This document shows positions 32-780 of a stretch of DNA of 9,497 nt, piece by piece. Origin of the DNA: a virus (lineage: Duplodnaviria > Heunggongvirae > Uroviricota > Caudoviricetes). The notes under the pieces were generated by a model that saw only the letters and a list, made by a program, of their open reading frames with translations, searched no databases and had not been told where the DNA came from. Each line of letters opens with the position of its first letter. Position 1 is the first letter of the stretch. The stretch lies in the IMG/VR virus record IMGVR_UViG_2671180636_000009; one strand, 5' to 3'. A program made the position numbers and the translations under genes.

Positions 32-350
32 AGCCTTCTTGAGGCTACCACCTGTTTTCAGGTGTCATTCAGACGTGATTTGCCCCAGATTGGGAAAGCA
101 CGCTTTTTTCTCAGCTATCGTCCTCTTATTTTGCCGTTACATTTCTTTTTGCATTCTAATGATTAATTTACAATAATAATATCGGTAATTATTGAGTAAT
201 AATAAATTAATTATTGCAAATGTAATTTAATTCCATCTTCGCGTTATATTCCAATCTTTAATCTCCGCATGGAACAAGTTGCATGCGTGACTATATTAAG
301 ACGACTTATAACCACCAAAACATTTGCTTTGCAAGCAAAAACAGTGACCA

Positions 351-379
351 TTGACTCTAAGAAAATTCCGATCTATTGT
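351..379 (+). promoter_or_regulatory. Candidate sigma70-like promoter (-35 TTGACT at 351-356, 17-bp spacer, -10 TATTGT at 374-379) upstream of the small ORF
   Basis: Hexamers read directly from the sequence. The region is AT-rich, so chance promoter-like matches are common; no experimental support. Confidence 0.2.
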
Positions 380-413
380 TAGGGTCATCAAAGTTACTTA
401 ACAGTATTCCGAA

Positions 414-515
414 ATGAAAATACAAAGCAAGCTAATTGTCTTATTAAACATTATTATTGCATTTATATTATTTGAGCTTTTAGCTCAAAAATTTGGTTTG
501 AGTACATTATTTTAA
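414..515 (+). CDS. Candidate small hydrophobic membrane peptide, 33 aa (MKIQSKLIVLLNIIIAFILFELLAQKFGLSTLF), possible moron or type I toxin-like gene
   Basis: ATG at 414, TAA at 513-515. About 16 consecutive hydrophobic residues are consistent with one transmembrane helix. A promoter-like element lies upstream and an intrinsic terminator about 150 bp downstream. No clear Shine-Dalgarno sequence precedes the ATG, and I do not recognise the peptide. Confidence 0.25.
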   Translation: MKIQSKLIVLLNIIIAFILFELLAQKFGLSTLF

Positions 516-663
516 AGCAAGATAAACAATATCGGGCACTCTAGTTTTTATAATTAACAATTAAACGTCCATAAAATGTTATTTACTTTTCTTCGCTATT
601 GTCATATCTTAATATAGTGGCTTACGCCACTCTACTTTCATCACATTTTGTACGTTTATGTAC

Positions 664-694
664 TCGCCATGAAGCTCTTTCATGGCGATTTTTT
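664..694 (+). terminator. Rho-independent terminator-like hairpin (10-bp stem 664-673 / 679-688, loop GCTCT) followed by a six-T run at 689-694
   Basis: Perfect inverted repeat TCGCCATGAA / TTCATGGCGA followed by TTTTTT, read directly. The T-run is on the plus strand, so it would stop transcripts coming from the small-ORF side before they run antisense into tfa. Confidence 0.45.
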
Positions 695-780
695 ATTCTT
701 AATCCAAGAACATACTCCCTACCTATAGCAAAATCACTTTTTTAACAAAAGAATAACGTATTTAGGTAATCATTACGAAT

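Follow-up and report, generated by a model that had tools for sequence, protein, structure and literature searches.

A probable phage-borne paralogue of the stress response membrane protein YncL beside the tail fibre assembly gene of Escherichia coli prophages

Lambdoid phages carry accessory genes known as morons at the tail-fibre end of their genomes, among them cor, lom, bor and HK97 gp15. The closest described relative of the gene considered here is yncL. YncL belongs to the small number of bacterial micro-proteins whose product has been validated; it is a 31-amino acid (aa) inner-membrane protein that is induced by heat shock and minimal medium. Its function, sublethal membrane depolarization and metabolic silencing, is only now emerging. 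Producing YncL partly and sublethally dissipates the membrane potential, induces the phage-shock response, condenses the nucleoid, and sensitizes cells to pore-forming peptides (PMC12542507). RseP cleaves YncL in vivo (PMC10470546). The Salmonella yncL transcript was first catalogued as the small RNA (sRNA) STnc1110, and its expression is sigma-S-dependent (PMC5437024). Here, we analyze a short open reading frame (ORF) at positions 414–515 of IMG/VR record IMGVR_UViG_2671180636_000009, a 9,497-nt stretch of Caudoviricetes DNA that we refer to in full as the window. This ORF is probably a real, unannotated gene that encodes a 33-residue single-pass inner-membrane protein and represents a divergent phage-borne paralogue of YncL. 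A first-pass annotation of the window, made from the letters alone, had listed it as either type I toxin-like or a small membrane protein.

The frame lies on the plus strand of an AT-rich island (28–30% GC around the ORF), begins with an ATG at 414–416, and ends with a TAA at 513–515. Its product, MKIQSKLIVLLNIIIAFILFELLAQKFGLSTLF, is 33 aa long. The first-pass description of a short, hydrophobic ORF is accurate: the grand average of hydropathy (GRAVY) is 1.51, and the top 19-residue Kyte-Doolittle window, at residues 7–25, scores 2.54. A hydropathy calculation, rather than a dedicated transmembrane predictor, places a single helix at residues 7–23. The summed Hessa-scale value for this segment is −2.4 kcal/mol, and the same segment is indicated in YncL.

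Homology searches return a single family for this peptide. The sole match is to NCBIfam NF000537, ‘stress response membrane protein YncL’ (E 1.3e-5, 25 bits), which aligns ungapped over residues 1–28 of the 30-position model; Pfam, PHROGs, and PADLOC contain no match. Four natural variants of the protein likewise match YncL alone, with 22.5–27.1 bits, as compared with 53.8–68.6 bits for true orthologues. Because hydrophobic peptides can match through composition alone, we ran shuffle controls. Eight fully shuffled sequences and a ninth in which only the helix core was shuffled gave zero NCBIfam matches, and the natural A24D variant still matches YncL. We also built a custom YncL hidden Markov model (HMM) from 19 distinct proteins, which originated from 36 GTDB species-representative loci in Escherichia, Citrobacter, Salmonella, Pseudescherichia, Enterobacter, and Intestinirhabdus. 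The peptide scores 24.6 bits against this model. None of 20,000 full shuffles reached this score, and just one did so among 20,000 shuffles of the transmembrane core in which both termini were kept. When 11,858 natural small ORFs from ∼1 Mb of fetched DNA were scored with the same model, YncL orthologues received 69–81 bits, the prophage peptides 23.6–26.3 bits, and the next best ORF 8.4 bits. A profile-profile comparison with YncL in hhalign gives a probability of 94.8% (E 5e-8).

Examination of the aligned sequences highlights the shared residues. BLASTP against K-12 YncL (MNVSSRTVVLINFFAAVGLFTLISMRFGWFI) aligns 28 residues, of which 11 are identical (39%) and 18 similar (64%). Positions common to YncL and the peptide include M1, S5, K/R6, L10, N12, A16, L19, F20, K/R26, F27, and G28. 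Both proteins thus encode a polar residue, N12, within the helix and a K/R-F-G motif after it. Fourteen residues are invariant among YncL orthologues (M1, N2, V3, S4, S5, T7, V8, V9, L10, N12, A16, L19, W29, and F30). The peptide retains seven of these, namely M1, S5, V9 (isoleucine in L195, a locus of the divergent lineage described below), L10, N12, A16, and L19. V3 and V8 are conservatively replaced by isoleucine, and N2, S4, T7, W29, and F30 are not retained. At the nucleotide level, identity between the ORF and yncL is highest at second codon positions (20 of 28) and lowest at third positions (10 of 28). NF000537 is an equivalog model with a curated whole-protein cutoff of 35 bits. Given its score below this cutoff, the missing W29-F30, and the lack of common synteny or of a common ribosome-binding site, the peptide is not a YncL equivalog or orthologue. 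Since it is nonetheless a significant, full-length homologue, its sequence places it as a divergent phage-borne paralogue of YncL, a homologue in the wider sense.

The reading frame is also conserved, a property that the first-pass annotation had proposed as a check on the ORF and that holds for close and diverged copies alike. The close-copy set comprises 79 copies that cover the entire ORF region. Seventy-seven of these keep the frame intact; the exceptions, a frameshift in locus L008 and an ATG>ATA change in locus L086, were each seen once. By comparison, five control small ORFs of the island are intact in just 33–83% of copies. Substitutions among the close copies fall at five synonymous and three non-synonymous sites (p 0.01–0.08 according to the transition bias applied). 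Polymorphism density in the ORF, 0.088 per nt, is lower than anywhere else in the island; the flanks have 0.14–0.39.

The comparison that decides the question is with a divergent lineage of about 21 genomes (loci L195–L197). This lineage, which includes strains Sx181-0-1, 2012C-4502, and NIST0056, was found via module copies beside sitD; CFT073 is absent among the sitD-adjacent matches listed. Its module DNA is just 78% identical to that of the window, and it retains a 33-codon ORF, MKIQSKLIILLNIIFALILFKLLAQKFGLYTLF. The two ORFs differ at 18 of 102 nt, with seven, one, and ten differences at first, second, and third codon positions, respectively. This pattern is a protein-coding signature. 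Eleven of the differences are synonymous and seven are non-synonymous, which corresponds to a dN/dS of 0.09 (Fisher p 2e-5), and one additional difference within the divergent lineage is synonymous. Directly after the stop codon, the divergent lineage carries a 5-nt deletion, and the spacer beyond is 66% identical with eight gap columns. The substitution pattern between the lineages, with a weaker signal among the close copies, indicates that 414–515 is under purifying selection on the protein. Both lineages lack a Shine-Dalgarno (SD) sequence, so this selection took effect when the gene already stood, SD-less, in the prophage.

Upstream of the ORF, a consensus scan identifies a promoter-like site, TTGACT-17-TATTGT, at 351–379 (+) that matches the consensus at nine of 12 positions and predicts a transcription start near 386. 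The first-pass annotation had likewise noted a promoter-like element here. A TC dinucleotide precedes the −10 element (TCTATTGT) and resembles a sigma-S-type −10. In the 78%-identical lineage, the −35 hexamer TTGACT is unchanged and the −10 reads either TATTGT or TATCGT; positions 370–382 contain zero variable sites among 80 copies. We infer that 351–379 acts as a promoter. The predicted 5′ untranslated region, ∼28 nt at 386–413 (+), is A/U-rich and, as judged from its fold and its pairing with the anti-SD sequence, unstructured and SD-less. The centroid fold leaves the start region unpaired, folding of the 61-nt initiation region yields just −2.3 kcal/mol, and the putative mRNA at 386–520 is no more structured than shuffles (z −0.37). 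Anti-SD pairing energies are −0.4 kcal/mol in the window, +0.1 in L195, and −7.2 in K-12 yncL, in agreement with the earlier remark that no clear SD is present. The intrinsic terminator that the first-pass annotation placed downstream is also there: it is strong, spans 664–697, and lies 149 nt past the ORF stop codon.

The ORF belongs to a conserved block, which we term the module, that extends from approximately 203 to 780 and shows at least 94% identity in most carriers. Complete E. coli genomes carry the module in 828 of 5426 cases (about 15%), as do four cultured lambdoid phages, about 49 IMG/VR contigs, and 21 metagenome contigs. The module invariably lies beside the tail fibre assembly gene tfa, yet the prophages that carry it occupy different sites, including the lambda attachment site, ydfJ, yodB, and a position beside sitABCD. 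A flank-anchored pattern search of GTDB species representatives found no copy of the module. Degenerate codon patterns and a profile search of IMG/VR recovered the same near-identical set only, and the remaining matches were due to chance. A tblastn search of the peptide against the phage collection gave no match, probably owing to low-complexity masking. Within the collections searched here, the peptide is seen solely in E. coli prophages. Among 1.84 billion representative proteins, phmmer found only the peptide and a 43-aa variant produced by a frameshift; YncL is unable to reach significance in that database owing to its size. Literature searches gave no match to the peptide or its DNA strings, and found no report of a prophage-borne YncL relative.

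Comparison with the divergent lineage divides the module into segments. Identity is 80% in the left part (235–339), 72% across the promoter and leader (340–413), 80% in the ORF (414–515), where conservation is at the protein level, 66% in the spacer (516–611), 92% and ungapped at 612–697, and 68% in the stretch to the tfa stop codon (698–780). The best conserved segment, at 612–697 (+), begins ∼100 nt downstream of the ORF and is an unannotated, sRNA-like element, as judged from its fold, terminator, and conservation. It consists of a 5′ hairpin (617–630), a 19-nt single strand (UCUACUUUCAUCACAUUUU, 631–649), a small hairpin (650–663), and the terminator hairpin (664–688) followed by a T-run; the fold has a z score of −6.79. 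Its distribution tracks that of the ORF (827 versus 828 genomes). A possible internal promoter for this element, TTTACT-17-TATCTT at 582–611 (+), was read from the sequence and was not reported by the consensus scan. In L195 its −35 is conserved, and its −10 retains the T, the A, and the final T. The ORF transcript may end in this element, the element may be transcribed separately as a small RNA, or both. Rfam returned only sub-threshold matches to MicC and Esr41. We considered and rejected a role for 575–702 as a MicC mimic aimed at ompC, the gene for the side-tail-fibre receptor: Rfam scores it at 22.8 bits against a 90-bit threshold, and 48–72% of shuffles pair with the ompC leader at least as well.

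These features suggest how the gene may operate. We propose that it is a moron, an independently promoted accessory gene located immediately beyond the tail-fibre operon of lambdoid E. coli prophages. Transcription would start from the 351–379 site, run opposite to the late genes, and end at the 664–697 terminator. The leader, A/U-rich and unstructured, would support translation without an SD. If the peptide behaves like YncL, it would then insert in the cytoplasmic membrane and partly dissipate the membrane potential, pushing the lysogen towards a low-activity, stress-tolerant state and possibly interfering with the inner-membrane infection steps of other phages. The sRNA-like element is part of this module, and the transcript of the gene may end with it. 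Like a typical moron, the gene converges with the late operon and comes with a promoter-like site of its own and a strong terminator, an arrangement that points to expression in the lysogen, from the prophage. Host stress tolerance, interference with incoming phages, and lysis modulation are all possible gains for the phage. We know of no exclusion phenotype for the peptide.

It is tempting to speculate further that the ∼580-bp block beside tfa is a two-part lysogenic-conversion module. Here, a YncL-like depolarizing micro-protein and a conserved Hfq-type small RNA, made from a shared transcript or an internal promoter, would together reprogram the membrane energetics and gene expression of the lysogen. 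We regard this extended proposal as unlikely. If it holds, the module could confer dormancy or stress tolerance, or could exclude superinfecting phages whose DNA entry relies on the membrane potential or on proteins of the inner membrane. Host YncL itself might also be the partner, or the target, of the phage copy.

Several observations weigh against reading 414–515 as a functional YncL paralogue. On the side of homology, the peptide scores 25 bits where the curated NF000537 cutoff is 35, it is missing the W29-F30 pair that is invariant in YncL, and the module flanks show no vestigial DNA similarity to the yncL locus. On the side of expression, neither prophage lineage has an SD, whereas all yncL orthologues examined carry a purine-rich, SD-like motif (AAGGTGG in Escherichia, AAGGA and other variants elsewhere). 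Shuffled sequences contain at least as many promoter-like sites as this region, and the 351–379 site is altered in one genome (L194). Three broken alleles, each seen once, are known: the L008 frameshift, the L086 ATG>ATA change, and P0003, which is the frameshifted 43-aa variant. Annotation gives little help, as PGAP leaves the ORF without a coding sequence (CDS) in all E. coli RefSeq rows and loci examined, and a collection of 15 billion proteins contains the exact peptide as a called gene on just two metagenome contigs, unnamed in both. All steps of the mechanism proposed above are inferred, and the membrane-depolarizing role would follow by analogy with a paralogue that is ∼39% identical.

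Some of these points would be expected of a decaying relic, that is, a YncL-like gene that a phage once acquired, that has since been deprived of its ribosome-binding site, and that hitch-hikes, unexpressed, beside the sRNA-like element and tfa. The absence of an SD from both lineages, the three singly occurring broken alleles, and the near-complete omission of the ORF by annotation pipelines all fit such a history, and the close copies, which are too similar to one another, provide on their own only a weak signal of selection. Between the two SD-less lineages, however, 18 of 102 nt have diverged with a dN/dS of 0.09 and one second-position change, and over the same interval the adjoining spacer gained indels and dropped to 66% identity. 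This low dN/dS between SD-less lineages, set against the decayed spacer, argues for protein-level selection in the SD-less prophage setting, and we consider a relic quite improbable. The chance origin of an Ile/Leu/Phe-rich frame, which AT-rich DNA favors and which the first-pass annotation raised as a concern, finds still less room. An ATG-initiated ORF of at least 33 codons is indeed expected in this island, since it is present in 76% of 2000 dinucleotide shuffles; just 0.8% of the same shuffles contain one this hydrophobic. Moreover, the similarity to YncL depends on residue order, and the codon-position differences follow a protein-coding pattern. In a related account, conservation would reflect RNA or DNA, such as a regulatory site or a non-coding RNA that ends at a weak, terminator-like, 8-bp hairpin found within the frame (471–489, +). 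The A24D allele (C484A) breaks a G-C pair of this hairpin without compensation, and L195 alters both arms, again without compensation. These uncompensated changes indicate that the hairpin is not a selected RNA structure; it is probably incidental. The homology and selection tests together dispel the concern about chance, and both the chance-ORF and RNA-conservation accounts are strongly disfavored.

A type I toxin-antitoxin locus, in which an antisense or neighbouring small RNA blocks translation of a membrane toxin and the two together stabilize the prophage, was part of the first-pass suggestion. The peptide is short and hydrophobic with one helix, overproduced YncL depolarizes the membrane much like TisB (PMC12542507), and type I systems occur on prophages (PMC12648545). 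The strongly conserved sRNA-like element 100 nt away and a minus-strand promoter-like site at 605–576 might also appear to supply the antitoxin. Yet that site, the sole one on the minus strand, is at chance level and overlaps the polymorphic positions 578, 601, 603, and 605. The sRNA-like element is on the same strand as the ORF, and we rejected it as a pairing antitoxin, as its complementarity to the ORF mRNA is no better than that of 16–54% of shuffles. The mRNA itself is as unstructured as shuffles, with an unpaired start codon and no SD to sequester. Aside from YncL, Pfam, NCBIfam, PHROGs, and PADLOC yield no toxin-family match at E values up to 10, consistent with the first-pass remark that no named toxin was recognized. 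Tandem duplication was not seen in the loci examined, for which no dedicated repeat search was run. The sequence therefore gives no support for a toxin-antitoxin pair, a conclusion that transcript data could overturn, and we judge this explanation very improbable. Of the original ‘type I toxin-like or small membrane protein’, the membrane-protein half stands, as a YncL paralogue under purifying selection; the toxin half is left without a family, a structured mRNA, a conserved antisense promoter, or a complementary RNA. By analogy, the earlier reader may not have been far off functionally, since overproduced YncL depolarizes the membrane sublethally (PMC12542507).

The wider locus is that of a lambdoid prophage. 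The island adjoins the 3′ end of tfa, just beyond it, and tfa (781–1362, −) and the ORF lie on opposite strands in convergent orientation; tfa is annotated in the homologous loci L001, L002, and L003. Long N runs mask parts of the tail-fibre genes, tfa among them, at 1170–1680 of the window and in other stretches. The Rfam family IS009 (RF02111) matches 821–1019 (−) with 218 bits, well over its gathering score. This match is entirely within the tail-fibre assembly CDS, so the RNA family may merely track a conserved phage CDS. At the other end, positions 1–31 are a terminal inverted repeat (strand not applicable) that marks the end of an IS1 element. The IS1 insertion interrupts the AT-rich region, which in intact relatives (phages ev099, mEp332, and PhiR70_1, and the prophage at the lambda attachment site of strain 104) extends to a minus-strand AraC-family regulator gene. 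The cargo on the far side of the module varies by prophage and may be a 65-aa hypothetical protein (WP_000348576.1, at the ydfJ site), a Bcr/CflA-family MFS efflux gene, sitABCD, or an AraC-family regulator (e.g., L005/L006 924–1121, L196/L197 852–2054, and L004 1–1160). The constant part beside tfa consists of the YncL-like gene and the sRNA-like element. Within the island, a 37-aa ORF at 269–382 (+), for which the PhiR70_1 annotation lists a hypothetical protein, is unlikely to be a gene: it is intact in 38 of 75 copies, has 11 different translations, and matches no family.

If 414–515 is indeed a YncL paralogue, a divergent YncL copy in about 15% of complete E. coli genomes has been overlooked by annotation, with the NCBIfam cutoff leaving the peptide out. 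The residues that host and phage copies have in common, such as Asn12 and K/R-F-G, would point to the functional core of the family. That selection has kept such a gene in prophages suggests that phages exploit this class of membrane micro-proteins. Purifying selection in spite of the missing SD would also make the gene a useful case for SD-independent translation of small ORFs. Experiments should be straightforward, as phage mEp332 (PV340541) has the module and grows on K-12.

Among described proteins, YncL (E. coli K-12 b4598; Salmonella STM14_1932 / STnc1110) is the closest to the prophage peptide. The two are of similar size (30–31 aa for YncL and 33 aa for the peptide), align ungapped from Met1 to Gly28, and share a predicted helix at residues 7–23. 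They have in common an S5-K/R6 N-terminus, Asn12, A16, L19-F20, and K/R-F-G. Both genes are small and stand alone with a short leader, ∼25–30 nt as estimated from the position of the −10. The C-termini differ, with LSTLF in the peptide and the invariant WF in YncL, and position 21 of the prophage peptide is charged (E or K), unlike in YncL. The gene neighbourhoods differ as well: yncL lies in the order patD-yncL-ortT, and the prophage gene lies beside tfa instead. yncL ranges over Escherichia, Citrobacter, Salmonella, and Pseudescherichia, whereas the prophage peptide is confined to E. coli prophages. Upstream, yncL orthologues combine an SD-like motif (AAGGTGG in Escherichia) with a CTATAC −10 element, whereas the prophage gene lacks an SD. 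Among the yncL loci L106–L131, most orthologues contain, in the 60 nt upstream of the start, a conserved promoter-like pair, TTGCGG ... CTATAC, together with an AAGGTGG SD. Pseudescherichia and Enterobacter yncL have a different upstream region and encode a 30-aa protein that ends in KYNWF.

Other described systems resemble the prophage gene in form or position. In E. coli, YohP and further small membrane proteins induced by stress share its design of a ∼30-aa helix with a short polar N-terminus, and by analogy the peptide would be expected to cause mild membrane depolarization when produced (PMC12542507); no sequence relationship between the peptide and this group was detected, and YohP, unlike the prophage peptide, is encoded by a chromosomal core gene. 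The type I toxins TisB, Hok/Gef, Ldr, Ibs, ShoB, ZorO, and DinQ, and the Bacillus prophage-borne BsrG, TxpA, and YonT, are also small, hydrophobic, single-helix peptides on a mobile element. By analogy, membrane depolarization is a likely end effect common to these toxins and the peptide (PMC12648545, PMC12542507). Unlike the type I toxins, the peptide has no toxin-family match, and no antisense or complementary RNA, structured mRNA, or SD sequestration was found at its locus. In position, the gene is most like the named lambdoid morons. Although cor, lom, bor, and HK97 gp15 are far larger than the 33-aa peptide and unrelated to it in sequence, they too are independently transcribed accessory genes (here, independent transcription is predicted) in AT-rich DNA past the tail genes, each with its own terminator. 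Like these morons, the YncL-like gene is accompanied in relatives by other cargo, including an AraC-family regulator, sitABCD, and an MFS efflux gene.

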